DNA of 64,000 bases from positions 11,689 to 75,688 of the forward strand of contig JACRHJ010000028.1 in the NCBI GenBank assembly GCA_016212105.1. Reading direction: 5' to 3'. Position 1 is the first letter of the stretch. Every line of letters begins with the position of its first letter. The notes below the pieces were generated by a model. That model was not told where the DNA came from. It made no database searches and saw only the letters and a program-made list of their open reading frames with translations. This document shows positions 17,380 through 64,000 of this stretch, piece after piece. The position numbers were made by a program, and so were the translations under genes. Source of the stretch: Nitrospirota bacterium. GTDB lineage: Bacteria > Nitrospirota > JACRHJ01.

Positions 17380-17394
17380 GGCACCGGTAATAAC

Positions 17395-19660: not shown

Positions 19661-20215
19661 ATGAAGGTTCTTGCGATACTCGGGAGCGCGCGGCGCGGCG
19701 GCAACACCGAGCTTCTGATGAAGGAGGCGCTCCGGGGCGCGGGGGTGGAGGCGGAGGTCCTGGACCTGGCCGAGCTGAACTACGTCGGCTGCCAGGGCTG
19801 CAAGGCGTGCCGCCAGGCCGGCGCGGACGGCTGCATGTTCCAGGACGACATGCAGATGCTGTACGATAAGATGAAGGAGGCGGACGCGCTCATCCTCGGC
19901 TCGCCGGTCTACTACGGCGAGGTGACCGGCCAGATGAAGTCCTTCATGGACCGCTGGTACGCGCTCCGGGACGGGGACAGGAGGCTGCGGCTGCCCGCGG
20001 GCAAGAAGGCGCTGTTCATACTCGTGCAGGGCGCGGACGGAGACGACCGGTACGAGTCGGCGGTCAGGCGTCTTGAGAAGGTCCTGACCAGCTACGAGAT
20101 GTCGCCGAGGCTTGTAGTCGCGGCCGGGCTTGAGAAGAAGGGCGCGGTCAAAGAGCACCCGGAACTTCTTGCGGCCGCCTTCGCGACGGGCCGGTGGCTG
20201 GCGGAGAGGCCGTGA
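19661..20215 (+). CDS. flavodoxin-like NAD(P)H-dependent FMN reductase / iron-sulfur flavoprotein family
   Basis: MKVLAILGSARRGGNTELL is the FMN_red-type N-terminus. GSPVYYGEVTGQMKSFMDR is also present. A Cys cluster (CQGCKAC) suggests the Isf-like subgroup. Confidence 0.85.
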   Translation: MKVLAILGSARRGGNTELLMKEALRGAGVEAEVLDLAELNYVGCQGCKACRQAGADGCMFQDDMQMLYDKMKEADALILGSPVYYGEVTGQMKSFMDRWYALRDGDRRLRLPAGKKALFILVQGADGDDRYESAVRRLEKVLTSYEMSPRLVVAAGLEKKGAVKEHPELLAAAFATGRWLAERP

Positions 20216-20231
20216 TACGTGTTCGTGAAGG

Positions 20232-20442
20232 CTCTTATGTAGGGGCGGGTCCCCGTGCCCGCCCTGCCTTGTATTTGATTTTGTAGGGGCCGACCCGTGT
20301 GTCGGCCCTGCCTTTGGTTTATGGTTGTCATTGCGAGGAGCCGAAGGCGACGCGGCAATCTCGGCCTTTAAGTACTGAGATTGCCACGCTTCACTCGCAA
20401 TGACATAATAAAGGTCCTACACCCGCTTCGCTTGGTACGGTT
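20232..20442. repeat. cluster R8 (I, D, G+M composite, R)
   Basis: Modules: 20239-20264 gtaggggcgggtccccgtgcccgccc; 20283-20308 gtaggggccgacccgtgtgtcggccc; 20327-20404 G+M composite; 20416-20440 R (inverted). Confidence 0.9.
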
Positions 20443-20452
20443 GCTGCATATT

Positions 20453-30100: not shown

Positions 30101-30381
30101 ACGGCGGCCACCTCGCCTATGCTCCCGGACACAATTATGAAGGGTATGTCCAGGCCCTTCCCGTGCAGCAGTTCGAGCGCGGCCGGCCCTGAGAACCGTG
30201 GCATGGTGTAATCGCAGAGGACGACGTCCCACCGCCCGGATTCCAGCGCATCGGCAAACGCATCCGGGGTGTCCACCCTTTCATATGCGAGGTCATAGCC
30301 CGAACGTCTCAGCTCCCTCGCGACCAGCAGGGCGTCCTCCTCGGAGTCCTCGACCATGAGCGCCTTCAAACTCTTTTCCAT
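27115..30381 (-). CDS. multidomain c-di-GMP phosphodiesterase: REC-GAF-PAS(x2-3)-GAF-HD-GYP
   Basis: 1088 aa. The receiver has ALMVEDSEEDALL and DVVLCDYTMPRFSG. The HD-GYP domain has LLHDIGKIG and HHERWDGRGYPAGL. Confidence 0.92.
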   Translation of the reverse strand: MEKSLKALMVEDSEEDALLVARELRRSGYDLAYERVDTPDAFADALESGRWDVVLCDYTMPRFSGPAALELLHGKGLDIPFIIVSGSIGEVAAVACMKAGAHDYIMKDRLSRLAPAIDRELAEAAVRRGRRHAEAALVKLNRLYAFLRSVNQLIVRVADRKSLFDGVCRIAVDRGLFRMAWVGLLDEDGRSVRPAAYHGCEDSYLENINITVEDVLLGRGPTGTAVRTGTHCINNDTATNPAMAPWREAALARGYLSSAAFPLTDGEVIVGAFMVYSGEAGFFDDDEVSLLDELAGDLSFALLSIEQEKRRTHMEGVIKRGKEEWEQTFDAITDPIMLLDTDFRMTRVNRAMADKLGTTVKGAIGMTCYREVHGLDKPHPMCPHQLLLADGQPHSTEIYEERLGGYFLVSVSPLHDQEGRLIGSVHYARDITERKRAEEAVKAERERFNDVLETLPVYIGILTPDYRVSFANRVFREYFGESGGRHCYEFIFGRTKPCEMCETFKALETMSPHKWLWSGPDGRHYDVFDFPFTNSDGTISILEMGLDITEQMLAEEALKNEAAVSGALLEASKVAGGNLVWDEVAESMAGLLLRFTGAKGVFIFTLARDGMLIPKKAAGIPEENQTSFHAMRGRASDIGLFRMTISAKKTLRFDTDSLPMYIDAAYAGPLRLKEAVVTPIPVRDGVVGFILTNHDSLPDDPRVAEIIEGIARQLGVAHDNSRLYAETRNKGIELARSVETLKVLSEIDKKILSTLDRDEMMTGALSQIRRVAPADIAGVLLADDDAGVLRFAYGWCLGMNIGDTVPFAHCAGYQTLKAGKTLVRLDLADEPDPSVMDRFFLEGGIKSDIFVPIVCKDKGFGLLHVGSYRVAGFSPEDVETIENLARQMGIAIENTRLISDVEEMFIGVVTAMASAIDAKSPWTKGHSERVTNYAMMTAARMGLGQKDLDALRLGGLLHDIGKIGTYDEILNKAGKLTDEEFGLIRKHPDAGANILGPIKQFKDMIPIIRHHHERWDGRGYPAGLAGEDIPLLARILCVADSFDSMTADRPYRKSLGFEFAVEEIARCAGSQFDPEVARVFAEMLKKTG

Positions 30382-30393
30382 GTCTTCCCCCGG

Positions 30394-30831
30394 TTACATC
30401 GTCGGCGGAACGTTCAGCAACAGCCAGTAAAGCCCTATCTGGCGCACCGTGTCGGAGAACTGGGTGAAGTCCACCGGCTTCCTTATGTAGCTGTTGCAGC
30501 CCAGGCTGTACCCCTTGATCAGGTCGGACTCCTCTTTGGACGACGTGAGGATTATAACCGGCAGCATCTTCGTCGCCTCGTTTTCGCGCAACATTTTCAG
30601 CACCTCTATGCCGTCCATCCTGGGCAGTTTCAGGTCCAGGAGGACTATCATCGGCAACTCGCTTATGTCGCGGCCCTCGTAACTTCCGGTGCCGAAGACG
30701 TAGTCCACCGCCTCCACGCCGTCCCTGGCGACGACCACCTCGTTCAGGATGTTGTTCTTCTTGAGCGCGCGTAGCGTAAGCTCCACGTCGTCGGGGTTGT
30801 CTTCCACCAGGAGTATCCTTTTGTCCTTCAT
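30394..30831 (-). CDS. single-domain response regulator (CheY-like)
   Basis: 145 aa with ILLVEDNPDDVEL, IVLLDLKLPRMDG, ILTSS and IRKP. It overlaps the upstream kinase gene by 4 nt. Confidence 0.93.
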   Translation of the reverse strand: MKDKRILLVEDNPDDVELTLRALKKNNILNEVVVARDGVEAVDYVFGTGSYEGRDISELPMIVLLDLKLPRMDGIEVLKMLRENEATKMLPVIILTSSKEESDLIKGYSLGCNSYIRKPVDFTQFSDTVRQIGLYWLLLNVPPTM

Positions 30832-32966
30832 GCCGCCTCCTTTAATATTGCCGGTACGTCCTGTCCTATCGTGAAGTAGAACGTCGCGCCCTTCTCAACC
30901 GCCCCTTCCGCCCATACCTTCCCGCCGTGCCGCGCAATGATGCGCTGGACGGTAGCGAGGCCTATGCCCGTACCGGGAAAGTCCGTGACGGCGTGCAGCC
31001 GCTGGAACGGCCCGAACAGTTTGTCGCTGTACGCCATGTCGAACCCCGACCCGTCGTCCCTGACAAAATAGGCCTGCCTGCCGTCTTTGACGGTGCCGCC
31101 GACCTCTATCCTCGCGCTTGCGTGCTTCGAGGTGAACTTCCAGGCGTTGCCGATCAGGTTGTCCATTACGACCCTCAGGAGCTGCGGGTCGCCGTCCACG
31201 GACAGCCCATCCTGTACAATCAACTCGACCTGCCGTCCGGCCTGCGTTTCACTCAGCCCCTCGGCGGCTTTCCGCGCGACGGCGCTCAGGTCCACGCTCT
31301 CCCGCTGCATCTCGCCCCGCGTCACGCGGGAGAGCTTCAGGAGGTCGTCGATGAGCTGCCCCATCCTCTGGCTGGCCGCGCGCACACGGTGCAGGCAGTC
31401 CCTGCCCTGGTCGTCCAGTTTGTCCTCGTAGTCCTCGAGCACGGCCTGGCTGAATCCGTCTATGCTCCGGAGCGGGGAGCGGAGGTCGTGTGAGACAGAG
31501 TAGCAGAACGCCTCCAGCTCCTTGTTCGCGGAGGTAAGCTGGGACGTGCGCTCTGCGACACGCAGCTCCAGTTCCTCGTTAATCCTCCTGACGGCGTCCT
31601 CCGCCTTCTTGCGTTCGGTGATGTCGCGCGTGACCTTCAGGAAGCCGCGCAGTCCGCCGTCATCGTCCTTTAACGCGGTGATGACAACATTTGCCCAGAA
31701 GGCCGAGCCGTCCTTCCTGACCCTGTAGCCCTCGTCCTCGTATCTGCCGGCCAGGGCCACCAGCTCAAGCTCGCGCGCGGGCTTCCCGGCGTCTCTGTCC
31801 CCGGCGGGATAAAAGCAGGAGAAATGCCTGCCAATGGCCTCGCTGGAGGTATAGCCCTTTATCCTCTCCGCGCCTTCGTTCCAGCTGGCAATATTGCCGT
31901 CCGGGTCCAGCATCACGATCGCATAGTCCTTTACGGCCTTCACCATCAGGCGGAACCGCTCCTCGCTTTTTATCAGGTCCTTCTCCGCAAGCCTGCGCTC
32001 CCTGGCCTCCGCCATCAGGTGCTCGTTGGTGACGGTCAGTTCCGCAGTCCTCTCATCCACCAGCTCCTCGAGCCGCTCGCGGTGTTCGCGCAGCTCGTCC
32101 TCTGAGCGTTTCAGCGCCCGCGCCGCCAGGACGAAAAAACCGACGACGAAGCAGAGGTTGACAAGCGTGGTAAGCGCGGCCCCGTATTCGCGCGTCACCA
32201 GGTCCCTGTCTCTCAGGTAAAGCCTGAACCAGCCGGTGGATATTTCCAGCGCAATTACGGCGGGCAGGAGCCGCCTGGCCAACAGCCCCGCGGCCCCCTC
32301 GTCAGAGACGACCTTCATGATCCCGTAGCCCGGACGCGAGAAGATTATGCCGAGGAACATAAGGACGAAGGCTATGGAGGTATGGACCGCTATGTTCGTA
32401 TACCTCGCCAGCGGGACGAGCGGGATGGCCCCGTAAAGGGCGCTGATGACGCCGAGCAGGGAGAAGGCTCCCGCGACGGCCGTCAGCGCGTTGACGACGG
32501 CGAGTTTGCGGTCATCGCTGTGATAATAGAGCGCGACCCCGAAAAGGACGAAGTTCAAGGCGGTCACGGGCGACATCCTGCCGGGGTACGGCGACTGCGC
32601 GGTAACCTGCGGGTCGGTGAACAGCATCTGGTCTATACCAAAATCGATGCCGGCGGCATACTCCAAGGCGTTGAGCGCGCCGAGCGACACGGCTACGAGC
32701 GCAAGCGCCCGAGCGAATATAACCGGTGCGGAGGTCCCCTTGCCGCCGTATACCGTGAGAGTCGAAAGCGCGGTCCCGATGCATATGAACGAGACAGCCG
32801 TGTTCGCCTTCATCGAGACGTGGCCGGGTATGAGCACGGTCAGGGATTCGAGGCCCAGGGCCCATCCCGCGAGCACGGCCAGGCCGATGGCCGCGACCGA
32901 GATGCCGAGCCAGACGGACGCCCTTATGAAGGCGCCTTTGTTCAAGGCCGTTTCCAGTTTTGCCAT
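30828..32966 (-). CDS. sensor histidine kinase with polytopic N-terminal membrane domain, PAS, HisKA, HATPase_c
   Basis: 712 aa. The first roughly 280 aa contain several TM helices. The H-box is SVSHDLRSPLRSI. The ATPase boxes are NLIGNAWKFT, DDGSGF and GTGIGLATV. Confidence 0.92.
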   Translation of the reverse strand: MAKLETALNKGAFIRASVWLGISVAAIGLAVLAGWALGLESLTVLIPGHVSMKANTAVSFICIGTALSTLTVYGGKGTSAPVIFARALALVAVSLGALNALEYAAGIDFGIDQMLFTDPQVTAQSPYPGRMSPVTALNFVLFGVALYYHSDDRKLAVVNALTAVAGAFSLLGVISALYGAIPLVPLARYTNIAVHTSIAFVLMFLGIIFSRPGYGIMKVVSDEGAAGLLARRLLPAVIALEISTGWFRLYLRDRDLVTREYGAALTTLVNLCFVVGFFVLAARALKRSEDELREHRERLEELVDERTAELTVTNEHLMAEARERRLAEKDLIKSEERFRLMVKAVKDYAIVMLDPDGNIASWNEGAERIKGYTSSEAIGRHFSCFYPAGDRDAGKPARELELVALAGRYEDEGYRVRKDGSAFWANVVITALKDDDGGLRGFLKVTRDITERKKAEDAVRRINEELELRVAERTSQLTSANKELEAFCYSVSHDLRSPLRSIDGFSQAVLEDYEDKLDDQGRDCLHRVRAASQRMGQLIDDLLKLSRVTRGEMQRESVDLSAVARKAAEGLSETQAGRQVELIVQDGLSVDGDPQLLRVVMDNLIGNAWKFTSKHASARIEVGGTVKDGRQAYFVRDDGSGFDMAYSDKLFGPFQRLHAVTDFPGTGIGLATVQRIIARHGGKVWAEGAVEKGATFYFTIGQDVPAILKEAA

Positions 32967-33197
32967 GCGTCACCCTGACAGCGACGAGTTCCGTCGCGGG
33001 AAGTAATAACGTGCCGGTTGAGCGTATCCATGGAGGAGAGACATTTGGTGCGTAAAACTCGGTCGAGCTTTCCTGATAATATTATAGCACAATTATATTT
33101 ATGCGCATCCCGGTCTGTAAAACATGTTTAGTTCGGGGCGCGCCCCCCGCCGCCCCGGACGAATCTCGCCGCATCCTTATAAAAAACATCAATAAAG

Positions 33198-36101: not shown

Positions 36102-36630
36102 GGGCGTCCCTCACTCGGCGCGGGACGCCCGCACCTGATGCTGTCATTCCCGCGAAAGCGGGAATCCATTGTTTCCGTAGGGGCCGCACCAAGCGAAGCG
36201 CGTGTCGGCCCTTTCATAGAATTCCTGGACCCCCGTCTTCACGGGGGTGACGGTCAGGGCCGACCCGTGTGCCGGCCCCATAAACTTCCTGGACCCCGTG
36301 TCAGGCACGGGGCGACATGGATATTTCGGTTGTCATTCCCGCATCGCGGGAACAGATGTATTTGTAGGGCGCGACGCCCCCGGCGCGCCGGGTTTTTACT
36401 CGGTTGTAGCTGCCCCATTTATGGGGCGAATTTAAAACGCCCGATGAACCGGGCAGCTACATTGCAGTTGTAGGGGCGCAATTATTGCGCCCGCACCGAT
36501 TTGTACAAAAGCAGATTCTTCGCTGCGCTCAGAATGACACCGTTTAATACAAAAGCAGGGCCGGCACACGGGTCGGCCCCTGCATAAAGGCAACTTCCTG
36601 GACCCCGTGTCAGGCACGGGGCGACATGTA
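36098..36630. repeat. cluster R13, the densest array (about 13 modules: K', A, R, Q, D, B, A, K, H', H, C, F, D, B)
   Basis: Modules are contiguous from the glgA stop to the kinase start. Examples: 36143-36167 A; 36178-36212 R; 36364-36389 K; 36470-36493 C; 36594-36625 B. Confidence 0.9.
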
Positions 36631-39073
36631 TAAAGAATCCGGGTGTCGCATGGTCACCTCCGAAAAGGTGGAACTGGAGATACTGAGCGAGGTCAGCAAG
36701 GTAGCCAACTCCACCCTCGAGTACAACGTGAAGCTGGAGAAGATCGTCAGTGCCATAGCCGGCAGGCTCGGCAGGGACGTCTGTTACGTCGTGCTCAGGG
36801 ACCGTGACCGGGACACCCTCGTCCTGAAGGCGGCGGTCGGGCTCAACCCGGACTCCATAGACCGCGTCATGCTCCGGATGGGAGAGGGGGTAACCGGCTG
36901 GGCGGCAGAGCACAAGGAGCCGGTCGCGCTCGCCGTGGCGAGGGACGACCCGAGGTTCCGGCTGGTCAGGCAGACCGGCGAGGAAAGGTACACCTCGCTC
37001 CTCGCGGTGCCGATACTCTACGACCAGCGGTGCATCGGCGTCATGGCGGTCCAGACGGTCGAGCCGCACGAGTACTCGCAGGACGAGATAACGCTCCTGT
37101 CCACGATAGCGAACGACGTGGGCGGGATAATAAACTCCGCGCAGCTCTACCAGGACGCGAAGACGAACCTGGAGGCGCTGTCCGCGCTGTACGACGTCAG
37201 CCAGGCGCTGATGTCCACGCTCGACCTGCCGACACTGCTCGACAGGATAGCGAGGTCGAGCGCGGAGGTCATAGGCGCCAAAGGCTGCATCCTGAGGCTC
37301 CTGAACAAGGAGTCCGGGCTCCTCGAGATAAAGGCCTCGCACGGCTTCGCCGCGGAGCTTGGCAGGAAGACGGAGCTTCGCATCGGCGAAAGCATCGCGG
37401 GGATGGTCGCGGCCGACGGCAAGCCGATGCTCATCAAGGACGTATACGAGCACCCGGAGTTCCTTAACGCGACCGGGGCGGTGGTCCGCTCGCTCCTCTG
37501 CGTGCCGATGATAGCCAAGGACAAGGTCATCGGCACCATCGCGCTGTACGACAAGGAGGAGGAGGGCAGGCACGGGGAGCAGCCGTTCAACGACGACGAC
37601 CTGCACCTGCTCACGACGCTCGCTACCCAGGCCTCGATGGCGGTCGAGAACGCGTTCATATTCGAGCGGGCGGAGGACCTCGCCCAGGAGAACGAGAAGA
37701 AGGCGGCCGAGCTGTCTTTCCTGTACGACGTGGCGTACGCGATGCGCTCGACGCTCAAGCTCGACCGGCTGTTGCACACCATCCTGACCGCGATGACCAT
37801 AGGCGGCGGGATGAGCTTCAACCGGGCGATACTCTTCCTCGTGAACGAGAGGACGAAGACGATGCAGGGCATGCTCGGCGTCGGGCCGTCCTCGGCGTGG
37901 GAGGCGGGCGAGATTTGGTCCCGGCTGGGCGACCGGCCGGTGAACTTCCGGGAGTGGACGCTCACGGACACGGAGCTTGCCGCCCAGAACGAGTCCGCGT
38001 TCAACCGGATGGCGAAGAGCCTCAGGGTGTCCTACGAGGAGGAGACCGGCGTCTTCGCCGCCGCGATCCGCGAAAGACGCGCTATACTTATAGAGGACGC
38101 GGAGAAAGACCCGCTCGCCGGGCCGGACATACTGGAGCTTATGGGGGTCAGGAGCTTCGCGGCGGTCCCGCTCGTGGCCAAGGACAAGGTGACCTCGCTC
38201 GTCGTCGTGGACAACAAGTTCACCGGCAGGCCGATAACGATGGAGGGCCTCAGGTTCCTGATGATGTTCGCCAACCAGGCCGGGCTCGCCATAGAGGCCG
38301 CGATGGCCTACTCCAACCTCGAACGGACGAACCGCGACCTCAAGGAGGCGCAGGCGAGGCTGATACAGTCCGAGAAGATGGCAGCGCTGGGCGAGATGGC
38401 CGCGTCCATCGCGCACGAGATAAAGAACCCGCTGACCGTCATCGGGGGTTTTGCGACCAGGCTCGCGAGGAAGGCGGCCGAGGGCGACGAGGCCAGGTAC
38501 GCGAGGATCATAAAGGACGAGGCGCTGAGGCTCGACAAGATATTACAGGAGGTGCTGGACTTCTCGCGCGACATGAAGCCGAACCTCCAGAAGAGCAGCC
38601 TGAGGGAGCTGTGCGAGGAGACGCTCGACATGTACGCCGAGCAGCTCCGGGAGAAGGGCATCAGGGTGGGCGTCGAGCTGTCGTCCGAGATGGGGGACGT
38701 GATGCTCGACCCCCAGCAGATGAAGCAGGCGGTGATAAACATACTGGCGAACTCGATGCAGGCGATGGAGGCCACCGGCGGGCGCGAGATAAGGATAAGG
38801 GCCTACCGGGACGCGGACGCGGACAGGATGGTCCTCGAGGTGGAGGACACCGGCGGCGGTATACCCGCCGACATGATGGAGAACATTTTCAACCCGTTCT
38901 TCACGACGAAGGAGAAGGGCACGGGCCTGGGGCTCGCGATAACCAGCAAGATAATAAAGAACCACGGCGGCGAGATAGAGGTCGTCAACAGGGAGGGCGT
39001 CGGGGCGACATTCAGGATAAAGCTGCCGCCCGTGCGCGAGGAGATAATAGACGATGTCGAAAGCGAAGGGTAA
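36626..39073 (+). CDS. cytoplasmic multi-GAF sensor histidine kinase
   Basis: 815 aa with no TM helices and at least three GAF-like segments. The H-box is ASIAHEIKNPLTVI. The ATPase boxes are NILANSMQAM, DTGGGI and GTGLGLAI. The start is uncertain: the ATG at 36626 lies inside a B repeat module, and 36650 is the alternative. Confidence 0.9.
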   Translation: MYKESGCRMVTSEKVELEILSEVSKVANSTLEYNVKLEKIVSAIAGRLGRDVCYVVLRDRDRDTLVLKAAVGLNPDSIDRVMLRMGEGVTGWAAEHKEPVALAVARDDPRFRLVRQTGEERYTSLLAVPILYDQRCIGVMAVQTVEPHEYSQDEITLLSTIANDVGGIINSAQLYQDAKTNLEALSALYDVSQALMSTLDLPTLLDRIARSSAEVIGAKGCILRLLNKESGLLEIKASHGFAAELGRKTELRIGESIAGMVAADGKPMLIKDVYEHPEFLNATGAVVRSLLCVPMIAKDKVIGTIALYDKEEEGRHGEQPFNDDDLHLLTTLATQASMAVENAFIFERAEDLAQENEKKAAELSFLYDVAYAMRSTLKLDRLLHTILTAMTIGGGMSFNRAILFLVNERTKTMQGMLGVGPSSAWEAGEIWSRLGDRPVNFREWTLTDTELAAQNESAFNRMAKSLRVSYEEETGVFAAAIRERRAILIEDAEKDPLAGPDILELMGVRSFAAVPLVAKDKVTSLVVVDNKFTGRPITMEGLRFLMMFANQAGLAIEAAMAYSNLERTNRDLKEAQARLIQSEKMAALGEMAASIAHEIKNPLTVIGGFATRLARKAAEGDEARYARIIKDEALRLDKILQEVLDFSRDMKPNLQKSSLRELCEETLDMYAEQLREKGIRVGVELSSEMGDVMLDPQQMKQAVINILANSMQAMEATGGREIRIRAYRDADADRMVLEVEDTGGGIPADMMENIFNPFFTTKEKGTGLGLAITSKIIKNHGGEIEVVNREGVGATFRIKLPPVREEIIDDVESEG

Positions 39074-39165: not shown

Positions 39166-39525
39166 ATGATGGGCAAGAGGATACTGGTGGTGGACGACGA
39201 GGAGAACATCCGCCAGCTCTACAAGGAAGAGCTGCTGGAGGACGGGTACGAGGTCTTCCTTGCGACGAACGGCGAAGAGGCCATCCGGATGGTGGACGAG
39301 GTCATGCCGGACCTGGTCACGCTCGACGTACGCATGCCGGGCATGGACGGCATAGAGGCGCTCCGCGCCATCAAGGAAAAGAACCGCGAGCTGCCGATGA
39401 TAATGTGCACGGCATACCCGGAGTACAAGCACGACTTCGGCGTCTGGGCATCAGAGGCCTACGTGGTCAAGTCCTCAGACCTCAAGGAGCTGAAGGACGC
39501 GATAAAGAAGATACTCGGGACTTGA
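39166..39525 (+). CDS. single-domain response regulator (CheY-like)
   Basis: 119 aa with ILVVDDEENIRQL, DLVTLDVRMPGMDG and MCTAY, and a conserved Lys in VVKS. Confidence 0.92.
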   Translation: MMGKRILVVDDEENIRQLYKEELLEDGYEVFLATNGEEAIRMVDEVMPDLVTLDVRMPGMDGIEALRAIKEKNRELPMIMCTAYPEYKHDFGVWASEAYVVKSSDLKELKDAIKKILGT

Positions 39526-39530
39526 GCCAT

Positions 39531-40184
39531 ATGATCGAATACGCCGAGAAATTCGAGGACATCTTCGAGACGATGAAGGGCGGCGACACGCGCGAGCTTG
39601 CCACCGCGTGCGACCTCGTCGTGCGCTCCTGGAAGGACGTGCCCGTGGAGCCGCTGCTCGCGCTGAAGGCCCTGTTCAGCAAGGTCGGCCTGGAGGACAG
39701 GGAGGCGCACATAGACGAGGCGCTCGCGAGCATTGCGGAGAAAAGGCCGGAGCCCTTCACGAAGATAGCCACCGAGCCGGAGAGCCCGCTCTGGCTGTCC
39801 GCGGTCGAGGTACTGTCCCTTACGGGGGACGAGGAGTACCTGGACCTCTTCGTCAGCCTCCTGCCGCTCTGCCCCAAGAGGAAACTGCCGGGCCTGGTGC
39901 GCTCTATCGGGCGCTACCGGTGCGCCAAAGCCGCCGAGGCAGTATCGCCTTACCTGAACTCGTCAGACGAGGCGCTTTTCTTCGAGGCGCTGTTGTCTCT
40001 CGAGGACGACGGGGGGCCGGAGGCGCTCGCCTGCCTGAGGGCCGCGCGCGACGCACGGCGGCGCGAGGGCTCCGAGATGGCCGCAGTGCTCGAGAGGGTG
40101 GTCGAGAAGATGGAAAGGGCGGCAGGCGGGCCGGAAGGCCCGTCCGGCTTCGGTCAGGGTGCGGGCGGCGCGTCCGCCGGCTGA
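39531..40184 (+). CDS. hypothetical alpha-helical (HEAT-repeat-like) protein
   Basis: 217 aa from the ATG at 39531, 5 nt after the response regulator stop. It is helical and Leu/Ala-rich with a Gly-rich tail. The 3' end overlaps the convergent GGDEF gene by 31 nt. There is no confident family. Confidence 0.5.
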   Translation: MIEYAEKFEDIFETMKGGDTRELATACDLVVRSWKDVPVEPLLALKALFSKVGLEDREAHIDEALASIAEKRPEPFTKIATEPESPLWLSAVEVLSLTGDEEYLDLFVSLLPLCPKRKLPGLVRSIGRYRCAKAAEAVSPYLNSSDEALFFEALLSLEDDGGPEALACLRAARDARRREGSEMAAVLERVVEKMERAAGGPEGPSGFGQGAGGASAG

Positions 40185-41482
40185 CCGGCGACCGCCTTTT
40201 TGTCCTTCTTGGCCCTGTACATGAACGAGTCCGCCTTCTTGATGGTCGTGTAGAGGTCGGTCCCGTATATCGACGTGCCGAGCCCGTATGAAACGCTGAG
40301 GTTCAGCCCGAGCAGGTTCTCCGAGAGGTCCTTCGTCTCGTTCCATTCATCCGCCTGACGCTTGAACCGGCTGATGAGCACCTCGCCCTCCTCCGGCCCG
40401 CTGTGCGGGAGAATTATCACGAACTCGTCCCCGCCCACCCTCGCTATTATGTCCTCGTGCCTGGTGTTGTCCTGGAATATCTGCGACATCTTCTTCAGCA
40501 GTATGTCGCCCGCCTCGTGGCCGTAGGTGTCGTTCGCGTCCTTGAGGTTGTCGAGGTCGGCGTAGATTATCGTGTACGGCCCCCTCTTCCTCTTGTCGTT
40601 TATGTTCTTCTTCTCCTCGTTTTCGAGGTAGAGGTTCAGGTAGTGCTTGTTGTAGACGCCGGTAAGCGCGTCCCTGTTGGCCCGGCGCTTCAGCTCGTCC
40701 TCTTCCTTCCGCCTCGCTGTCGCGTCCGTGACTATCTGGAGGACGTGGGTGACGACGCCCTCGGCGTTCTTGACGGGTATGCTCTTGTTCTCCGTGACCA
40801 CCGTCCTGCCCTTTATCTCCGTGGTGCGCGAGTGGGTCGCCTCCTTGCCGGTCTGGAACGCCTTCCTCGCGGCGCAGTCCTCAATGCAGACGTCGTCCTT
40901 GCCGCCCAGGACCTCGTAGCACTTGTGGCCGAGTATGTCCACGAGCGGCTTGCCGAGGAACTGCCGCGCGCCGTACTCGTTCATCTCGACGTAGGTCATG
41001 TTCGCGTCGAGGAGCGCGAGGAGAGACGGGACGTTGCCCGCGATCTTCCGCTGTATCTCTATCTGCCGGAGCAGCTTTGCGTTCGCCTCCTTGAGCTTGC
41101 GGGAAGACTCGACAAGCTCCTCCCGGCCCTCGACCACCTTCTTCTCGAGGTTCTCTGTGAGGTCCTTCAGCTCCGCCTGGGACCTCTCCAGCTCCAGGTT
41201 CTTGGCGAGTATCTCGGACTGGTGCATCACGTCGTCCTCGCGCAGCTTCCCGACCAGGACGCCGACCGCGCCGACGACGAATATGGAGCCCGCGATGAAG
41301 ACGTGCGTGATGATGTTCTCTGGGGAGCTGAGCACGACGTCGCGGAGGTAGGCGGAGAAGGTTTTATCGCCGTGGAAGAGGTTGAAGTCCACGAGGGTGT
41401 ACATGAGCGGGGCGGTGGCGCCCACGAGCGCGCCCGTCACGCCGTACTTCAGCTTCTCGCTCGTTTTTACAAGGGAGGTCAT
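40154..41482 (-). CDS. membrane-anchored PAS-GGDEF diguanylate cyclase
   Basis: The active site is RVGGDEFVIIL. An RxxD I-site (RHED) lies exactly 5 residues upstream. The protein also has two N-terminal TM helices, a coiled coil and a PAS domain. The start could be 41482 or 41524. Confidence 0.9.
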   Translation of the reverse strand: MTSLVKTSEKLKYGVTGALVGATAPLMYTLVDFNLFHGDKTFSAYLRDVVLSSPENIITHVFIAGSIFVVGAVGVLVGKLREDDVMHQSEILAKNLELERSQAELKDLTENLEKKVVEGREELVESSRKLKEANAKLLRQIEIQRKIAGNVPSLLALLDANMTYVEMNEYGARQFLGKPLVDILGHKCYEVLGGKDDVCIEDCAARKAFQTGKEATHSRTTEIKGRTVVTENKSIPVKNAEGVVTHVLQIVTDATARRKEEDELKRRANRDALTGVYNKHYLNLYLENEEKKNINDKRKRGPYTIIYADLDNLKDANDTYGHEAGDILLKKMSQIFQDNTRHEDIIARVGGDEFVIILPHSGPEEGEVLISRFKRQADEWNETKDLSENLLGLNLSVSYGLGTSIYGTDLYTTIKKADSFMYRAKKDKKAVAGQPADAPPAP

Positions 41483-41581
41483 CTGGCAACCCGGATGTGG
41501 ATTGAGGTTATCATAAGCATCCATATATTATAAAAGGTTGCGCGCTTTGTCAAGGAATAAGGGGCAGGGCCTAAAATTCAG

Positions 41582-56802: not shown

Positions 56803-56840
56803 AAAACAATTATAGCATCTTTCTGTCAAGGGAGGTGACA

Positions 56841-58163
56841 ATGTTCGGGAAGAAACCAACCCAGCTCCGTCCCCGCGACGATACCGGCATCAGCCACAAG
56901 CTCAAGGTCTCGTACTTCGTGGCGTCCATCATACCCATCCTCGTAATGACCTACCTGTACCTGAAGTACATCTCGCCCGAGGTGTTCAAGGAAGGCCAGG
57001 ACGTCATAGCAATAGTCGTAGCCGTCCTCATGCTGCTCACCATCTCCCTGTCAGTGATGGGGCTCATGCTGACGAGCCGCGCGGCGAACGACTCCATCCA
57101 CACCCTCCAGAAGCTGAACAACAGGATGGACAGCCTGCTCGACCTGACCAAGAACTTCCGGGAGAGCATGTACGTCGACGTCCTGCTCGACTCCATAGCG
57201 AACTCGGCAAGCCAGATACTTAACGCGGAGGCGAGTTCCATCCTCCTCTACGACGAGGCCGGAAACCTGCGGTTCGAGCATATAACAGGCGAGAGCGCGA
57301 ACGCCCTCAAGGGCAAGATAGTCAAGCCCGGCGTGGGCATTACCGGCTGGGTCGCACAGGAGGGCAAGCCCGTGGTGGTCAACGACGTCGCCTCGGACCC
57401 CCGCTTCGCCTCCATGTACGACAAGGACAGCGGGTTCGTCACAAGGTCGATGCTGTGCGTCCCGCTCGTCATAGAAGGCGTGAACATCGGCATACTCGAG
57501 GTCATCAACAAGAAGGACGACGAGCCGTTCACCGAGCAGGACATGAAGATACTGTTCTCGCTCGCCGACCATGCCGCGCTGTCCATCAGCAGGAGCAAGA
57601 ACTACGAGTCGTCACACAGCGACTTCATACAGGTGACGGAGATACTCGTCACCGCGATGGACTACCACGTCCCGGAGAAGAAGGGCCATGCGAGGCGGGT
57701 CGCGCAGTATGCCGTTAAGCTCGCCAAGGGGCTCGGCCTCAACGAGCAGGAGCAGAAGAGGATATACTTCGGCTCGCTCCTGCACGACATAGGGCTCCTG
57801 AAGTACAACCAGGACGACTACTGGGGTCTGAAGAAGTTCGAGATGCACCCGAACCTGGGCTTCGAGATGATAAAGGCAATAACCATATGGCAGCCGGTCG
57901 CGCCGCTTATACTCTCTCACCACGAGCGGTTCGACGGCAGCGGCTACCCGAGGGGGCTCGCCGGCAGCGAGATACCGCTCGGGGCGCGTGTTATCGCGGT
58001 AGCCGAGGTGTTCGACTCACTGGTCAGCGCCCGCTCCTACAAGCCGTCCGTCTCCTATACCGAGGCGCTTGAGGAACTGAAGAAGAACGCCGGCAGCCAG
58101 TTCGACCCCCACGTCGTCAGCATGTTCGTGTCCATCTTCCGCAAGGAGGACGTGGTCGAGTAG
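56841..58163 (+). CDS. membrane-anchored GAF-HD-GYP c-di-GMP phosphodiesterase
   Basis: The ATG at 56841 lies 5 nt after GGAGG. Two TM helices and a GAF domain are followed by HD-GYP (LLHDIGLL, HHERFDGSGYPRGL). Confidence 0.9.
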   Translation: MFGKKPTQLRPRDDTGISHKLKVSYFVASIIPILVMTYLYLKYISPEVFKEGQDVIAIVVAVLMLLTISLSVMGLMLTSRAANDSIHTLQKLNNRMDSLLDLTKNFRESMYVDVLLDSIANSASQILNAEASSILLYDEAGNLRFEHITGESANALKGKIVKPGVGITGWVAQEGKPVVVNDVASDPRFASMYDKDSGFVTRSMLCVPLVIEGVNIGILEVINKKDDEPFTEQDMKILFSLADHAALSISRSKNYESSHSDFIQVTEILVTAMDYHVPEKKGHARRVAQYAVKLAKGLGLNEQEQKRIYFGSLLHDIGLLKYNQDDYWGLKKFEMHPNLGFEMIKAITIWQPVAPLILSHHERFDGSGYPRGLAGSEIPLGARVIAVAEVFDSLVSARSYKPSVSYTEALEELKKNAGSQFDPHVVSMFVSIFRKEDVVE

Positions 58164-58238: not shown

Positions 58239-59048
58239 CTATTTGGCGACCTTTATCTCCCTGATACAGGACTTGCCGTCGACGTCGAGGCAGTAGGCCT
58301 TGACCTTGGAGCCTACCGCAAGCTCGTCCATGGCCGCGCCTCTGGTCACGTCCTGGTAATACAGCGTCTTCTCTCCTGCCGCGGTCTTTATGACCACGGT
58401 CTTTCCGGCCGGGTCGAGCGAGACGACCTCGCCCTCCACCTCGCCAGGCTGCATCGATTTGGCAGCCGCCTTGCTGGCGAACACTGTCACTTTGTTCGCG
58501 CAGAACTTGCCGTCGCTGTCGAAACACTCCGCGGTCACATAGGAGCCGGGGGCTATCAGCCTAACTGGCAGCAACTCGCAGGCAAGCATCTTGGAGCCCG
58601 CCACGTTGGCCGGGGCGCCGCAGACGGATACCATATCGACCGTCGCGGCGGTCACCTTGATGGTCATCTTCTCGCCCTTGGGGTTGACGATGACCACCGT
58701 CTTGCCCTCAGGGTCGATAGATACAACCTCGCCTTCGAACGTCTTCGTCGGGGCCCCGGAGCCCGCTACGGATATTACCTCGACGGTCTTCGCGCAGGCC
58801 TTCCCCTCGAGGTCGATGCAGGTCATCTCGACGCTCATCCCCGGCTTGACGTCCTTGAAGCCGACGGTCTCGTCCTGGAAGTTGACGGTTTTGTGGCCAG
58901 CCTCAGTGTCGATTACAACCGTCTTTCCGGACGGGTCTATGGACACCACCTTGCCTGTTACCGAGTACTCGCCCCCGGCGAAAGACACCGCGGCCACCAT
59001 GCAGGTAACGGCCAGCGCGGCCAACATCGTGTAAAGCGGCTTTTTCAT
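58239..59048 (-). CDS. secreted protein with three tandem beta-rich repeats, each ending in a CxDxxGKxC motif
   Basis: The signal peptide is MKKPLYTMLAALAVTCMVAAVSFA. The repeats start GKVVSIDPSGKTVVI, GEVVSIDPEGKTVVI and GEVVSLDPAGKTVVI. They end TCIDLEGKAC, ECFDSDGKFC and YCLDVDGKSC. Confidence 0.75.
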   Translation of the reverse strand: MKKPLYTMLAALAVTCMVAAVSFAGGEYSVTGKVVSIDPSGKTVVIDTEAGHKTVNFQDETVGFKDVKPGMSVEMTCIDLEGKACAKTVEVISVAGSGAPTKTFEGEVVSIDPEGKTVVIVNPKGEKMTIKVTAATVDMVSVCGAPANVAGSKMLACELLPVRLIAPGSYVTAECFDSDGKFCANKVTVFASKAAAKSMQPGEVEGEVVSLDPAGKTVVIKTAAGEKTLYYQDVTRGAAMDELAVGSKVKAYCLDVDGKSCIREIKVAK

Positions 59049-59156
59049 GCTCTGCCTCCAAGTCTCTCCTCTTGCAAGAGGTGATAGGGGAAAAATACTG
59101 CATAATCCTCCATTCACTTAAAGTTAGCAATGGATATGTTATTTGTCAAGGAGGGC

Positions 59157-59214: not shown

Positions 59215-59535
59215 TTACTTTACGTGGCACTTCGGGCAGCTGTCCGGGGACTTGACCGCGAAGGCCTTCTCGCCGTTGTGGCAGGCGCCGCAGTTCTTGC
59301 CGGCCTCCATGTCCGCCATGGTGAGCTTGTCGCCGCCCTTCTTCATCTTGAAGAGGCCGGGATGGCAGTCCGGGCACTTGAAGCCCTTCTTCTCTGTGTG
59401 GTTCTCGTGCGAGAAGACGACCTTGCCCTCATCACCGACGGCCGGGAACTCGACGTCCTTCTTGAGCGCGAAGCTGAGGCTCGCGAAAGAGAGGGTCATT
59501 ATCACGGCCAGTGCGAATACAGTAAGCTTTTTCAT
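59215..59535 (-). CDS. periplasmic triheme c-type cytochrome (c7/c3 family)
   Basis: 106 aa with a signal peptide and three CxxCH haem sites (CPDCH, CGACH, CPKCH). Extra His residues (FSHENH) could serve as distal ligands. Confidence 0.88.
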   Translation of the reverse strand: MKKLTVFALAVIMTLSFASLSFALKKDVEFPAVGDEGKVVFSHENHTEKKGFKCPDCHPGLFKMKKGGDKLTMADMEAGKNCGACHNGEKAFAVKSPDSCPKCHVK

Positions 59536-59713: not shown

Positions 59714-59863
59714 CCTAAAACATCATGCCCGCACTCCCGCCGGGACACAAAATACAGCACAAAAACTGACATATGTCATCGCCGGGAGGCCGGGGTGGTG
59801 TATAATGGAACCATAAAACGGACACAAACGGCTGACACAGGCTATAATAACAGGAGGTGGAAT

Positions 59864-60079
59864 ATGACGGCTCTCATCAAGGTGGACAAGAATACAATAA
59901 TCGGCGACATCGTGAAGTCCTGTCCGGAGGGCAAGGAGGTCATCCAGAAGTATTTCGGCACCGGCTGCTTCACATGCCCGGGCATCAACATGGAGTCCAT
60001 AGGCTTCGGCTCGATGATGCACAACCTCGACCCGCAGCTCATCGTGGACGAGGTGAACGCCGCCCTCGAAAAGAAATAA
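59864..60079 (+). CDS. DUF1858 / hybrid-cluster-protein-associated redox disulfide domain protein
   Basis: 71 aa from the ATG at 59864, 6 nt after AGGAGG. TIIGDIVKSCPEGKEVIQKYFGTGCFTCPG...ESI matches the family pattern, including CxxC. Confidence 0.8.
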   Translation: MTALIKVDKNTIIGDIVKSCPEGKEVIQKYFGTGCFTCPGINMESIGFGSMMHNLDPQLIVDEVNAALEKK

Positions 60080-60485: not shown

Positions 60486-61697
60486 ATGCCCGTTTTTCAT
60501 TATAGGATAGGGAAAGAGGACGGGAGTGTCCTCGACAAGGAAACGGAGGCGGAGAGCGAAGACTCGCTCAGGCGCGACCTCGAGGACTCGGGTTACCTGG
60601 TCCTTGAGATAAGCAAGCGCCGCGTTGCCGCCCTAGGCCAGGGGCTTGGCGGTTTCTCCAGGAAGCAGAAGTCTGAGGAGTTCCTGGTCTTCAACCAGGA
60701 GATCCTTGCGCTCATCAAGGCCGGTCTCCCCATAGTACAGTCGCTCGACATCCTTATGGAGCGGACGCCAAACCCGGGGTTCAAGGACGCGCTCGCGGAC
60801 GTCAGGGCCGAGGTCAGGGGTGGCAAGGCGCTGTCAGACTCGATGGCCAGGCACTCCCGGTACTTTCCGGAGCTGTACTCGAACTCGCTCCGCTCCGGAG
60901 AGCGCACCGGCAGTCTTGCAGAGGTCCTGGAGCGGTACATCGCCTATCAGAAGCGGATGCTGACCGTAAAGAGAAAACTCAAGAGCGCGCTTACTTACCC
61001 GCTTTTCCTCATGGGTTTTACGTCCGGGGTCCTCGCGCTGCTCTTGCTGTATGTCGTCCCGGTTTTCTCGGAGATTTACGGGGACTTCAAGGGTGAGCTG
61101 CCGTTGCCGACGGTGATACTGATGAACTCCACCAGGTTCATCAAGAACTATCTTCCTCTTTTTGCAGCCCTTGCCATTGGGTGCTTCTTCATGCTCCGGG
61201 CATGGTACAGGACGGACAGGGGGCGTCTCGTGCTGGACGGCTACCTGCTAAAGCTGCCCCTCGTGGGCGGCCTGATAAAGGGGTACTTCATCAGCACCAT
61301 GGCCCGCACGCTCGCCACGATTCTCTCTGGCGGCATACCCATGCTTCAGGCGCTCGAAATGGTGTCGAGGTCCGTCACCAACAGGGTGCTCGCCTCCAAG
61401 CTCAGCTACGCGCAGGAGAGGGTGCGCGAGGGAAGCAGCCTGGCGGGGGCGTTCGAGGAGACCGGCATCATGCCGGCCATGACCATACGGATGATAGAGG
61501 TTGGCGAGGCCACGGGCTCGCTCGAGGTGATGCTGGACGACATATCCACATTCTATGAGGAAGAGGTCGACGTCAGGCTGAACGGCATGCTTAGCCTCAT
61601 GGAGCCGGTCATGCTGGCCACGATGGGAGTCCTGATAGGCAGCATAGTCGTAATCATGTACCTGCCCATATTTGAGCTGGCGGGCACGGTCAAATAA
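60486..61697 (+). CDS. pilC: type IV pilus / type II secretion platform protein (PilC/GspF family)
   Basis: 403 aa with two T2SSF repeats, three TM segments and the C-terminal LPIFELAG. Confidence 0.93.
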   Translation: MPVFHYRIGKEDGSVLDKETEAESEDSLRRDLEDSGYLVLEISKRRVAALGQGLGGFSRKQKSEEFLVFNQEILALIKAGLPIVQSLDILMERTPNPGFKDALADVRAEVRGGKALSDSMARHSRYFPELYSNSLRSGERTGSLAEVLERYIAYQKRMLTVKRKLKSALTYPLFLMGFTSGVLALLLLYVVPVFSEIYGDFKGELPLPTVILMNSTRFIKNYLPLFAALAIGCFFMLRAWYRTDRGRLVLDGYLLKLPLVGGLIKGYFISTMARTLATILSGGIPMLQALEMVSRSVTNRVLASKLSYAQERVREGSSLAGAFEETGIMPAMTIRMIEVGEATGSLEVMLDDISTFYEEEVDVRLNGMLSLMEPVMLATMGVLIGSIVVIMYLPIFELAGTVK

Positions 61698-61708: not shown

Positions 61709-63886
61709 GTGGACGGCATGGAACCAGACGACAGGCTTCAGGACGCAGTGCAGGCGGTTGGCGGCACCGTACTGGTGGTCGACGACGAGCGTGACGTGCA
61801 GGCGGTCATCTCGATAATACTCGGGAAGGCGGGCTTCAGGACCATGACCGCATCCTCCGGCCGGGAGGCGCTGGACAAGGTGCGCGAGAACGCTCCGGAC
61901 ATCGTGCTGCTCGACTACATGATGCCCGGCATGAACGGCCTCGACACCCTGAAGGAGATAAGGAAGCTCCGCCCCGAGACGGCCGTGGTTATAGTGACCG
62001 GCCGGGGCAGCGAGTCTACCGCCGCTGACTCGATAAAGATGGGCGCCGACGACTACATAGCGAAACCCTTCGACAATGAAGGGTTAGTCGCGTCGGTAAA
62101 GAGGGTGCTGGGCGAGAGGCGGGAGAAGATGGCCGCCGAGCAGGAAGAGATGTCCATGATGTCGCGGATGGCCGGCAAGAAGCGCCTGGGCGACGTGCTC
62201 GTCGCCAAGTGCTACGCGACAGTCTCAGAGATAGAGGACGCGGTCGAACGCTCGGGCAAGCCCGGAAAGAGGATAGGCCAGGTGCTCGTGGAAGACGGCG
62301 TCATCTCGGAGGAGCAGCTCGCCAGGAGCCTCGCCTACCAGTACGGCGCGAAGTTCGTCAACCTCTTCAACTTCCACATAGAGCCTCGCTATTTCGAGTT
62401 CATATCCTACGAGCTGATGGATCGTTACCAGTTCGTCCCGTACGACGAGGAGGGCGGCAGGCTCGTCGTCGCGGTGTCAGACCCGTCCAACATCATAATG
62501 GTGGACGAGCTGGAACTGCTGCTCTCCCGCCCCTTGAGCATATGCGTCGCGACCAGGCAGGCAATAACCGAGGCGCTCAAGCGCAGCGAGGGCTCGCAGA
62601 GGGTGCTGAAGGAGGTCACGGAGGAGTTCAAGCTCCACCTGGTCAAGGAGACGGACGAGGGTGAGGAGACGCTCTCCATGGACAGGCTGGACGAGGAGAT
62701 AAGCCCTATAATAAGGCTGGTAGACACCATCCTGTTCTCCGCCGTCCAGAAGCGGGCCAGCGACATCCATATTGAGTCCGACGAGAAGTTCGTCATAGTC
62801 AAGTACAGGATAGACGGGGTGCTCTACCAGGCGATGGACCCGATAGATTTCCGGTTCCACAGTACTATCATCTCGCGCATAAAGATCATGTCCGAACTGG
62901 ACATCGCCGAGAAGAGGATACCCCAGGACGGCCGGTTCAAGATACGGTTCAAGGACAAGAAGATAGACTTCCGCGTCTCCATCATGCCGGCGATATTCGG
63001 CGAGGACGTGGTCATCAGGATCCTCGACAAGGAGTCGATCACCGCCGACCTGCACGAGCTGAGGCTGGAGAGGCTGGGCTACAGCGAGGACGACCTGAAG
63101 GGCTTCAGGAAGGCGATATCCGAGCCGTACGGCATGGTGCTCGTCACCGGGCCGACCGGCTCGGGCAAGACGACGACGCTCTACGCCGCCGTGTCCGAGA
63201 TAAACTCCTCCGAGGACAAGATAATAACCATCGAGGACCCGGTCGAGTACCAGCTCCCCGGCGTGGTCCAGATACCGGTCAACGAGAAGAAGGGGCTGAC
63301 ATTCGCCAGGGGGTTGCGCTCAATACTCCGGCACGACCCGGACAAGATAATGGTCGGCGAGATAAGGGACTCCGAGACCGCCCAGATAGCGGTGCAGTCC
63401 GCGCTTACCGGCCACCTGGTCTTCACCACGGTGCACGCCAACAACGCCTTCGACGTCATAGGCCGCTTCACGAACATGGGCGTCGAGCCGTACAACTTCG
63501 TCAGCTCGCTCAACTGCATCCTGGCCCAGCGGCTCATCAGGACGATCTGCCAGAACTGCAAGGCGCCAGCCAAGATGTCCAGGCAGCTCATAGAGGACTC
63601 CGGCCTGGACTACGAAGAGATGGTACGCAGGGGTGTTGTCTTCTACGAGGGGAAGGGCTGCTCGGAGTGCAACGGGACCGGGTACAAGGGCAGGAAAGCG
63701 ATCACCGAGTTCCTGGACCTCACCGACAGGATAAGGGAGATGATACTCGACAGGCGGCCGAACTCCGAGATGCAGAAGGTCGCGCTCGAGGAGGGCATGA
63801 GCACGCTCCGCCAGTCCGCGCTCAAGAAGGTCTTCGCGGGCGATACCACGCTCCGCGAGATAAACCGCGTAACGTTCGTGGAGTGA
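61709..63886 (+). CDS. receiver-domain-fused PilB/GspE/MshE-type secretion ATPase (REC-MshEN-T2SSE)
   Basis: 725 aa. The REC domain has VLVVDDERD, DIVLLDYMMPGMNG, IVTGRG and AKP. The MshEN-like region spans 62183-62341. Walker A is GPTGSGKTTT. The tetra-Cys motif is CQNC...CSEC. Confidence 0.93.
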   Translation: MDGMEPDDRLQDAVQAVGGTVLVVDDERDVQAVISIILGKAGFRTMTASSGREALDKVRENAPDIVLLDYMMPGMNGLDTLKEIRKLRPETAVVIVTGRGSESTAADSIKMGADDYIAKPFDNEGLVASVKRVLGERREKMAAEQEEMSMMSRMAGKKRLGDVLVAKCYATVSEIEDAVERSGKPGKRIGQVLVEDGVISEEQLARSLAYQYGAKFVNLFNFHIEPRYFEFISYELMDRYQFVPYDEEGGRLVVAVSDPSNIIMVDELELLLSRPLSICVATRQAITEALKRSEGSQRVLKEVTEEFKLHLVKETDEGEETLSMDRLDEEISPIIRLVDTILFSAVQKRASDIHIESDEKFVIVKYRIDGVLYQAMDPIDFRFHSTIISRIKIMSELDIAEKRIPQDGRFKIRFKDKKIDFRVSIMPAIFGEDVVIRILDKESITADLHELRLERLGYSEDDLKGFRKAISEPYGMVLVTGPTGSGKTTTLYAAVSEINSSEDKIITIEDPVEYQLPGVVQIPVNEKKGLTFARGLRSILRHDPDKIMVGEIRDSETAQIAVQSALTGHLVFTTVHANNAFDVIGRFTNMGVEPYNFVSSLNCILAQRLIRTICQNCKAPAKMSRQLIEDSGLDYEEMVRRGVVFYEGKGCSECNGTGYKGRKAITEFLDLTDRIREMILDRRPNSEMQKVALEEGMSTLRQSALKKVFAGDTTLREINRVTFVE

Positions 63887-63888: not shown

Positions 63889-64000
63889 ATGTCGCTATTA
63901 TTCGGTAGAGGGCCGGGCATCGGCCTCGAGGTCGGCCAAAGGGCGCTCCGGGCAGCGAAGCTCGCTGGGCGGACCGGCGAGAGGCGCGTGGAATGGGCGG
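63889..64000 (+). CDS. possible PilM-like pilus assembly protein, N-terminal fragment (runs off the window)
   Basis: An ATG lies 3 nt after the ATPase stop. Only 37 codons are visible (MSLLFGRGPGIGLEVGQRALRAAKL). The call rests on position and a weak resemblance to PilM N-termini. Confidence 0.35.
   Translation, partial: MSLLFGRGPGIGLEVGQRALRAAKLAGRTGERRVEWA

Follow-up and report, generated by a model that had tools for sequence, protein, structure and literature searches.

A receiver-MshEN-ATPase fusion in a Nitrospirota lineage: a candidate type IV filament motor with proposed two-component and c-di-GMP inputs

Results

Domain architecture of the ATPase

Near the end of a 64,000-nucleotide stretch of a Nitrospirota genome (the window; NCBI GenBank assembly GCA_016212105.1, contig JACRHJ010000028.1, positions 11,689 to 75,688 of the forward strand), an open reading frame (ORF) at 61709..63886 (+) encodes a PilB/PulE-type assembly ATPase that carries a CheY-like receiver domain (REC) and an MshEN domain on its N-terminal side, as judged from Pfam profiles, motif positions and gene calls. 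The ORF starts with GTG and encodes 725 amino acids (aa), while public gene calls start at ATG 61718, three codons downstream, and give a protein of 722 aa (P0001); the ATG form was matched among public proteins and the GTG form had no exact match there. Scanning the 725-aa protein with Pfam recovered Response_reg (residues 21-130, E 3.8e-32), MshEN (PF05157; 212-298, E 5.7e-18) and T2SSE (330-720, E 3.8e-133) in one polypeptide, and the domain extents used below are REC 21-130, MshEN 159-298 and PilB/GspE-type ATPase 330-720. The identity of the ATPase and its three-domain architecture, which had been proposed in an earlier sequence-only reading of this stretch, are thus almost certain, and the residues cited in that reading (VVDDE 23-27, LLDYMM 67-72, VTGRG 96-100, AKPF 118-121 and the MshEN motifs) were all found where it had placed them.

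The receiver (residues 21-130; 61769..62098, +) scored 111.2 bits against PF00072 (cutoff 30.2) over the whole length of the profile, and is predicted with good confidence in the AlphaFold2 (AF2) model (predicted local distance difference test, pLDDT, ~85-90). Its catalytic residues D25, D26, D69 (nt 61913-61915), T97, Y116 and K119 align to D12/D13/D57/T87/Y106/K109 of CheY. Among 22 homologues carrying the fusion, D25, D26, D69, Y116 and K119 are invariant (22/22) and T97 is present in 21/22, so that the receiver is complete, as had been claimed. Judged by these residues, it looks fully phosphorylatable, and an input from REC to the motor is very likely. The linker that follows (residues 131-158; 62099..62182, +) was delimited by AF2 secondary structure: in the full-length model, alpha5 of the receiver extends as a helix of about 30 residues (H120-149 in 722-aa numbering) to about residue 152, and a short hinge of low confidence (pLDDT dip at 146-153) precedes helix 1 of MshEN.

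The C-terminal part of the protein comprises N2D and the ATPase domain (T2SSE; residues 330-720; 62696..63868, +; PF00437, 444 bits), with Walker A GPTGSGKT at 481-488 (nt 63149-63172), an Asp box ITIEDP at 506-511, Walker B IMVGE at 547-551, a His box LTGH at 566-569 and the tetracysteine Zn motif CQNC 614-617 / CSEC 651-654. A Foldseek search matched the ATPase fold to PilB, PilF and GspE, with identities of 47-48% to Geobacter PilB and 43-44% to EpsE and PilF. The protein falls below the NCBIfam equivalog cutoffs of both PilB (TIGR02538, 599.3 vs 675.65) and GspE (TIGR02533, 554.7 vs 630.25), and therefore is not assignable to either named equivalog.

The MshEN domain and its putative c-di-GMP site

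MshEN domains of the MshE type bind cyclic di-GMP (c-di-GMP) through two 24-residue motifs. The Pfam MshEN model spans the C-terminal subdomain only, from residue 212, and does not cover the motif region, so a 70-aa piece holding the motifs was aligned directly. Residues 157-218 pair with residues 7-68 of Vibrio cholerae MshE in the c-di-GMP co-crystal 5HTL in a gapless alignment well above what chance would give (phmmer E 2e-6 for this piece), and the whole domain aligns to PilF, Myxococcus xanthus PilB, Geobacter PilB and MshE with E values from 1e-38 to 2e-9. In this alignment, motif I (residues 159-182, RLGDVLVAKCYATVSEIEDAVERS; 62183..62254, +) corresponds to MshE R9-Q32, with R159/L160/G161 at R9/L10/G11, C168 at G18, I175 at L25, V179 at L29 and S182 at Q32. 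Motif II (residues 188-211, RIGQVLVEDGVISEEQLARSLAYQ; 62270..62341, +) corresponds to R38-Q61, with R188/I189/G190 at R38/L39/G40, G197 at G47, L204 at L54, L208 at L58 and Q211 at Q61. The two motifs, which were also delimited by the profile of the clade, are separated by GKPGK (nt 62255-62269) in place of the 5-residue spacer of MshE, and the spacer is 5 aa long in 22/22 homologues.

Structure prediction agreed with this register. The AF2 model of the MshEN domain alone (residues 148-306; pLDDT 89.8, predicted template modelling score, pTM, 0.81) has helices at 160-166, 172-182, 189-195 and 201-211, which form a four-helix bundle, followed by an alpha/beta C-terminal subdomain (MshEN_C, GSPII or N1D; residues 212-298; 62342..62602, +) that is found by PF05157 and matches those of 5HTL and PilF GSPII-B. 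Its best match in the Protein Data Bank by Foldseek is 5HTL (template modelling score, TM, 0.74/0.82; root-mean-square deviation, rmsd, 2.5 Å), followed by c-di-GMP-bound PilF GSPII-B, whereas the match to the non-binding GSPII-A is poorer (TM 0.62/0.64, rmsd 4.0 Å). By alignment and predicted fold, the domain is a true MshEN/GSPII domain, and since its motifs are in register with solved c-di-GMP complexes, the concern that the motif match might be out of register with true MshEN domains does not hold.

The intactness of the site was compared with the consensus RLGxx(L/V/I)(L/V/I)xxG(L/V/I)(L/V/I)xxxxLxxxLxxQ, of which the relaxed pattern of Wang et al. allows [GAS] at position 10. Motif II is canonical at all key positions, its sole deviation being Ile for Leu at position 2, and it passes the relaxed pattern in 21/22 homologues. 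Motif I deviates by C168 for Gly10 (outside [GAS]), S182 for Gln24, I175 for Leu17 and V179 for Leu21, and has Y169-A170 at positions 11-12, with R-L-G-D and the hydrophobic I175 and V179 kept. The description of an intact MshEN motif in the title of the sequence-only reading therefore stands for motif II only and overstates the c-di-GMP side, both motifs being required for binding. Among the 22 homologues, motif I shows little or no variation at R1, L/I2, G3, D/E4 and I17 but is variable at adjacent surface positions, a pattern that ligand contact would predict, and positions 11-12 are occupied by a clade-specific Tyr/Phe-Ala.

The start of one motif (RLG) and the end of the other (LxxxLxxQ) together hold each guanine in MshE (PMC5013675). 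Read in this way, one guanine pocket of the Nitrospirota protein, R159-L160-G161 with L204, L208 and Q211, is fully canonical, and the other, R188-I189-G190 with I175, V179 and S182, has kept its hydrophobic character and lost the Gln, a residue which hydrogen-bonds ribose and phosphate (PMC5013675). The Gly in the turn between alpha1 and alpha2 of motif I is replaced by Cys. Mutational work has shown that Ile for Leu in the motif costs about 2.4-fold in binding, and that the Arg at position 1 and the Gly at position 3 are critical (PMC12002112).

Gene cluster around the ATPase

The gene directly upstream (60486..61697, +) encodes a 403-aa platform protein of the PilC/GspF/PulF family (T2SSF E 4e-59), whose NCBIfam scores for GspF (323 bits) and PilC (311 bits) are both under cutoff, and 11 nt separate its stop codon from the GTG of the ATPase. 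Downstream, the first 111 nt of a pilM/pulM-like gene (63890..64000, +), recognised by gene call and by comparison with L001, the corresponding locus of a strain 99.5% identical, run up to the window edge. Both neighbours are as the sequence-only reading had described them.

The downstream cluster was read from L001, where the ATPase gene is followed by genes for PilM, PilN, PilO, a 297-aa Pro-rich protein, a secretin lipoprotein and three prepilin-like proteins, two of which are N-methyl prepilins with GspG-like N-termini, and then by genes for a histidine kinase with a HAMP domain (19352-20908) and for a response regulator of the sigma-54 type. This supplies the pilN/O/P/Q and pilin genes that were to be sought downstream, with the 297-aa protein at the PilP position. 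The prepilin-like genes lie just past the window, and the earlier impression that no pilin gene is present is an effect of the window edge, because the window stops 111 nt into the pilM-like gene. Likewise, the gene order is not atypical as had been thought, since the order F-E-M-N-O-P-Q-pseudopilin is common to dozens of REC-less relatives in Nitrospirota, Acidobacteriota and Desulfuromonadota and recurs in Pelobacter Pul-1. In L001, the gene at the PilP position (14356-15249) encodes a Pro-rich protein without a family match, and the secretin (15268-17763) is a lipoprotein with an LAGC lipobox, an N-terminal TPR region, a Pro-rich linker and a C-terminal cohesin-like domain, a feature not usually seen in PilQ or GspD.

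No PilT-type or second PilB-type ATPase was found within the window. Because of this, the missed equivalog cutoffs and the order of the cluster, the ATPase is assigned by gene order as the putative motor of a Pul-type type IV filament system, an assignment that does not distinguish pilus from secretion.

Two-component and c-di-GMP genes nearby

A histidine kinase and a sigma-54 response regulator lie directly after the pseudopilin genes in 4/4 loci of REC-fused ATPases, compared with 0/33 REC-less loci. The HAMP kinase of the cluster is the leading candidate as phosphodonor for D69, judging from its position, and one REC-fused locus has a REC-PAS-PAS kinase immediately upstream instead. About 3.5 kb upstream, a gene at 56835..58163 (+) encodes a membrane-anchored GAF-HD-GYP protein, a putative c-di-GMP phosphodiesterase, in which the motifs are intact in the window (HD at residue 317, HHERFDGSGYP at 362-372). 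This gene occurs at the same place in 4/5 REC-fused loci and in 0/56 REC-less loci. Its counterpart in L001 has an in-frame TAG (INKKDDE to INK*DDE) and has been split into two gene calls.

The window also encodes a GGDEF diguanylate cyclase (40154-41524, -) and a second HD-GYP protein (HHERWDGRGYP) in an ORF of about 1092 codons (27118-30393, -), both recognised by motif only, which indicates that the organism uses c-di-GMP. Signalling genes are dense in this window; further ones, assigned by motif only, are a GAF-rich histidine kinase (36626-39073, +) and two ORFs with a histidine-kinase H-box motif (30831-32969, - and 9714-11783, -); the GAF-rich kinase is followed by a single-domain REC (39169-39519, +). 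Rfam searches found no c-di-GMP riboswitch and no other family in the window or L001, and no tRNAs were found.

Between the GAF-HD-GYP gene and the platform gene lie a CusF-like repeat gene (58239-59117, -), a small cytochrome c7 gene (59215-59535, -) and a DUF1858 gene (59795-60079, +). All three are kept in 3/5 REC-fused loci, and in a fourth (L082) the cytochrome c7 and DUF1858 genes are kept and a Fic gene replaces the CusF-like gene.

Elsewhere in the window, a low-GC island (16930-18327, +; GC ~0.47 vs 0.61 for the window) holds two genes, encoding a 149-aa DUF6932 nucleotidyltransferase-like protein and a 310-aa protein with a weak SUKH_5 match. The island looks horizontally acquired, and its genes may be a toxin/immunity or defence pair. 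The codon bias of the window (e.g. 62100-62820) is very strong (rich in GAG, AAG and GAC, with frequent ATA for Ile and AGG for Arg) and gives rise to many long spurious ORFs in other frames and to blastn matches of ~75% identity between unrelated genes.

Distribution and origin of the REC fusion

About 24 public sequences carry the REC fusion, with 76-86% identity. They are strictly monophyletic in a tree of 120 relatives (24/24) and form one 50%-identity cluster in a library of 1.84 billion proteins. The nearest non-fused relatives share 62-68% identity, lack REC and are ~572 aa long, and in none of the REC-less relatives does a gene for a separate REC lie between pilC and pilB. Because of this monophyly, the single cluster and REC-less neighbours without an adjoining REC gene, the fusion is a single event in a narrow Nitrospirota lineage. 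A scan of GTDB genomes matched only REC-less relatives, from residue 122 or later, and these served as the controls for synteny. When REC and MshEN were used together as query, generic REC proteins dominated the word-indexed search and multi-REC proteins the exhaustive representative search; independent fusions of the types REC-MshENx3-T2SSE and MshEN-T2SSE-RECx3 were found, suggesting recurrent origins of REC fusion.

Two candidate explanations were rejected. The public protein P0024 (573 aa) seemed to be a REC-less isoform, but it is a mis-started call, since L086 1848-4010 holds an uninterrupted REC-fused ORF of 720 aa that starts with GTG directly after the pilC stop. The ATG chosen for P0024 is a conserved Met about 5 residues before RLGD, where REC-less relatives have the ancestral start, and an internal start at this Met giving a REC-less isoform is conceivable from the sequence. 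A recent duplication of the receiver of the cluster sigma-54 response regulator was also rejected as the source of REC, as the two share ~36% identity and are dissimilar in alpha1; the best REC matches in the database, at 43-50%, are those of hybrid kinases and NtrC-type regulators.

Discussion

A motor with two putative sensory modules

The ATPase described here would be the hexameric assembly motor of a Pul-type type IV filament machine, a class that stands between type IVa pili and the classical type II secretion system (T2SS), and would drive the polymerisation of pseudopilins or pilins via the PilC/PulF platform. Its regulatory N-terminus consists of two sensory modules in series, REC and then MshEN/GSPII. 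Asp69 would be phosphorylated, possibly by the kinase of the same cluster, and phosphorylation would reposition the alpha5 linker, which in turn would alter the way in which MshEN and the motor contact PilM/PulM, the platform or the ligand. The MshEN_N bundle would still bind one c-di-GMP, probably more weakly than MshE does. With motif I degenerate, binding of c-di-GMP by the domain is plausible, and we hold it for somewhat better than an even chance on motif and model evidence. Integration of phosphorylation and c-di-GMP in one protein can reasonably be inferred from the two modules, and the full reading, in which a two-component signal and the level of c-di-GMP both act on the motor, is the one we favour, with moderate confidence.

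Several observations weigh against it. None of the 22 clade members has a motif I that passes the relaxed pattern of Wang et al. At position 24 of this motif, Gln never occurs and its place is taken by Ala, Val, Gly, Ser or Asp, and at position 10, Gly occurs in just 9/22. The x positions of motif II are conserved as strongly as the contact positions, and therefore conservation may reflect another interface. In GSPII-A, a perfect motif is not sufficient and the packing of subdomains can block the pocket (PMC12002112), therefore sequence alone cannot establish binding. The full-length AF2 model, with a pTM of 0.42, leaves the contacts between REC and MshEN undefined. The counts of co-occurring genes come from one clade, effectively one evolutionary event, so that the co-occurrence at the locus is suggestive and not statistically independent. 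The receiver of the ATPase and that of the cluster sigma-54 response regulator differ at most alpha1 positions, which, together with their ~36% identity, leaves a shared kinase without sequence support. Finally, a full-text literature search found no experimental study of any REC-fused member.

On part of this evidence, the motor might respond to phosphorylation only: MshEN would have lost c-di-GMP binding and would now have only a structural role, as the N1 domain by which the motor is docked onto PilM/PulM-PulL-like partners, the REC fusion having taken over from c-di-GMP as the regulatory input. We regard this as the lesser possibility, though one to be taken seriously. The failure of motif I throughout the clade agrees with it, as does the lack of Gln24 in both the REC clade and the REC-less relatives. 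Gly10 is found in 87/98 REC-less relatives against 9/22 of the REC clade, and its loss, with the Tyr/Phe-Ala at positions 11-12, has the look of a constraint that was relaxed or altered once the fusion had arisen; moreover, PilF GSPII-A and the N-domains of XpsE and Xanthomonas citri PilB share the fold without binding c-di-GMP. Against such a loss of function stands the invariance, within the clade, of R-L/I-G-D in motif I and of all key positions of motif II including Q211, and one complete guanine pocket is canonical. Loss of a single Gln is tolerated in PilF: in GSPII-B, the substitution Q190E, at the position of S182, lowered binding from low-nM to ~500 nM and did not abolish it, binding being abolished only in the double Gln mutant (PMC11731258), and PilF Q190E has been crystallised with ligand (9gl5, among the PDB matches of the MshEN model). 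With regard to position 10, M. xanthus PilB has Asn there in our alignment and is reported to bind c-di-GMP (review PMC11656802). The MshEN model is also nearer to ligand-bound forms than to GSPII-A, and the GAF-HD-GYP gene is syntenic with the cluster.

The opposite case, in which c-di-GMP is the only input and REC is a phosphorylation-independent module for localisation or oligomerisation, has a precedent in the REC of FimX, which shows that receivers of pilus regulators can work without phosphorylation (review PMC11656802), and no cognate kinase can be assigned from sequence. It is very improbable here, since, unlike in FimX, DD, D69, T97, Y116 and K119 are all present and conserved across the clade, and wherever a REC-fused locus is long enough to show it, its cluster includes a histidine kinase gene. 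An artefact, either a separate upstream REC gene joined by assembly or annotation error or a chance motif match, might be suspected from the REC-less call P0024 and the GTG start, but is already refuted by the full 720-aa ORF at the P0024 locus, by the same-frame fusion in ~24 independent metagenome assemblies and by the alignment of the motif region with solved MshEN domains (E 1e-9 to 1e-38).

Within the dual-input reading, REC may even gate the MshEN pocket in cis via the alpha5 linker, so that c-di-GMP binding or its transmission is limited to one phosphorylation state; we consider this doubtful at present. The REC fusion, the kinase/sigma-54 pair and the remodelling of motif I (in which the turn Gly is lost, Tyr/Phe-Ala occupies 11-12 and helices 3-4 are almost frozen) appear together in one lineage. 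If the gating were true, the motor would act in cis as an AND/NOT gate on two signals, something that no type IV filament ATPase has been demonstrated to do.

Comparison with known systems

The co-occurrence of MshEN with REC was noted by Wang et al. 2016 (PMC5013675; Nat Commun 7:12481), whose Supplementary Table 4 lists "REC - MshEN - T2SSE" in beta-, gamma- and delta-proteobacteria with Geobacter metallireducens Gmet_3473 as example. The domain order is the same as here, so the novelty implied in the sequence-only reading is reduced; their cases are proteobacterial while the present clade belongs to Nitrospirota, and Gmet_3473 is likened by description only. The Nitrospirota protein thus adds to an architecture that has been catalogued since 2016 but is uncharacterised, and a 2024 review of PilB regulators (PMC11656802) makes no mention of REC-fused members, the word "receiver" being absent from it. 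The practical value is modest, as the architecture has been known since 2016 and the host is an uncultured Nitrospirota lineage.

With MshE and PilF GSPII-B (5HTL, 8PDK), the MshEN domain shares the fold (TM 0.70-0.82), the 24+5+24 layout, the register and a canonical motif II, and differs in having Cys for Gly10 and Ser for Gln24 in motif I, and REC and a long helix before helix 1. The protein is hence suited to asking which deviations of the MshEN motif still permit c-di-GMP binding.

As to the machine, Pelobacter carbinolicus Pul-1 has the order pulF, pulE, pulM, pulN, pulO, pulP, pulQ (a secretin lipoprotein), pulG and oxpG (PMC3543383), and in G. sulfurreducens the secretion of OmpB requires a system of the Pul type (Mehta et al. 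2006, as cited in PMC3543383). These "atypical T2SS" of Geobacteraceae and Pelobacter share with the present cluster the gene order, PilMNO-like components, a secretin lipoprotein and tandem GspG-like pseudopilins; their PulE, like the REC-less relatives, is without REC, unlike the ATPase here, and the likeness rests on gene order. The syntenic Geomonas homologue has 58% identity to the ATPase over the matched region and 67% over the ATPase part, and scores only ~452 bits against crystallised Geobacter PilB, so that it is a paralogue and not the canonical pilus motor, consistent with a separate PulE (GSU1783) in G. sulfurreducens.

Control of PilB in trans is well documented, in the 2024 review (PMC11656802) and other papers, for PilG/PilH, the PATAN-REC regulators of Synechocystis, Xanthomonas DrdR and the FimX-PilZ-PilB complex. 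The logic is the same, in that the extension ATPase is where two-component and c-di-GMP signals meet, but such control of the motor has so far been worked out through separate adaptors (PilG/H, PilZ-FimX, PATAN-REC), whereas both sensor modules here lie within the motor polypeptide and no adaptor protein would therefore be needed. A motor with both modules offers a compact system for studying how two signals combine on one ATPase.

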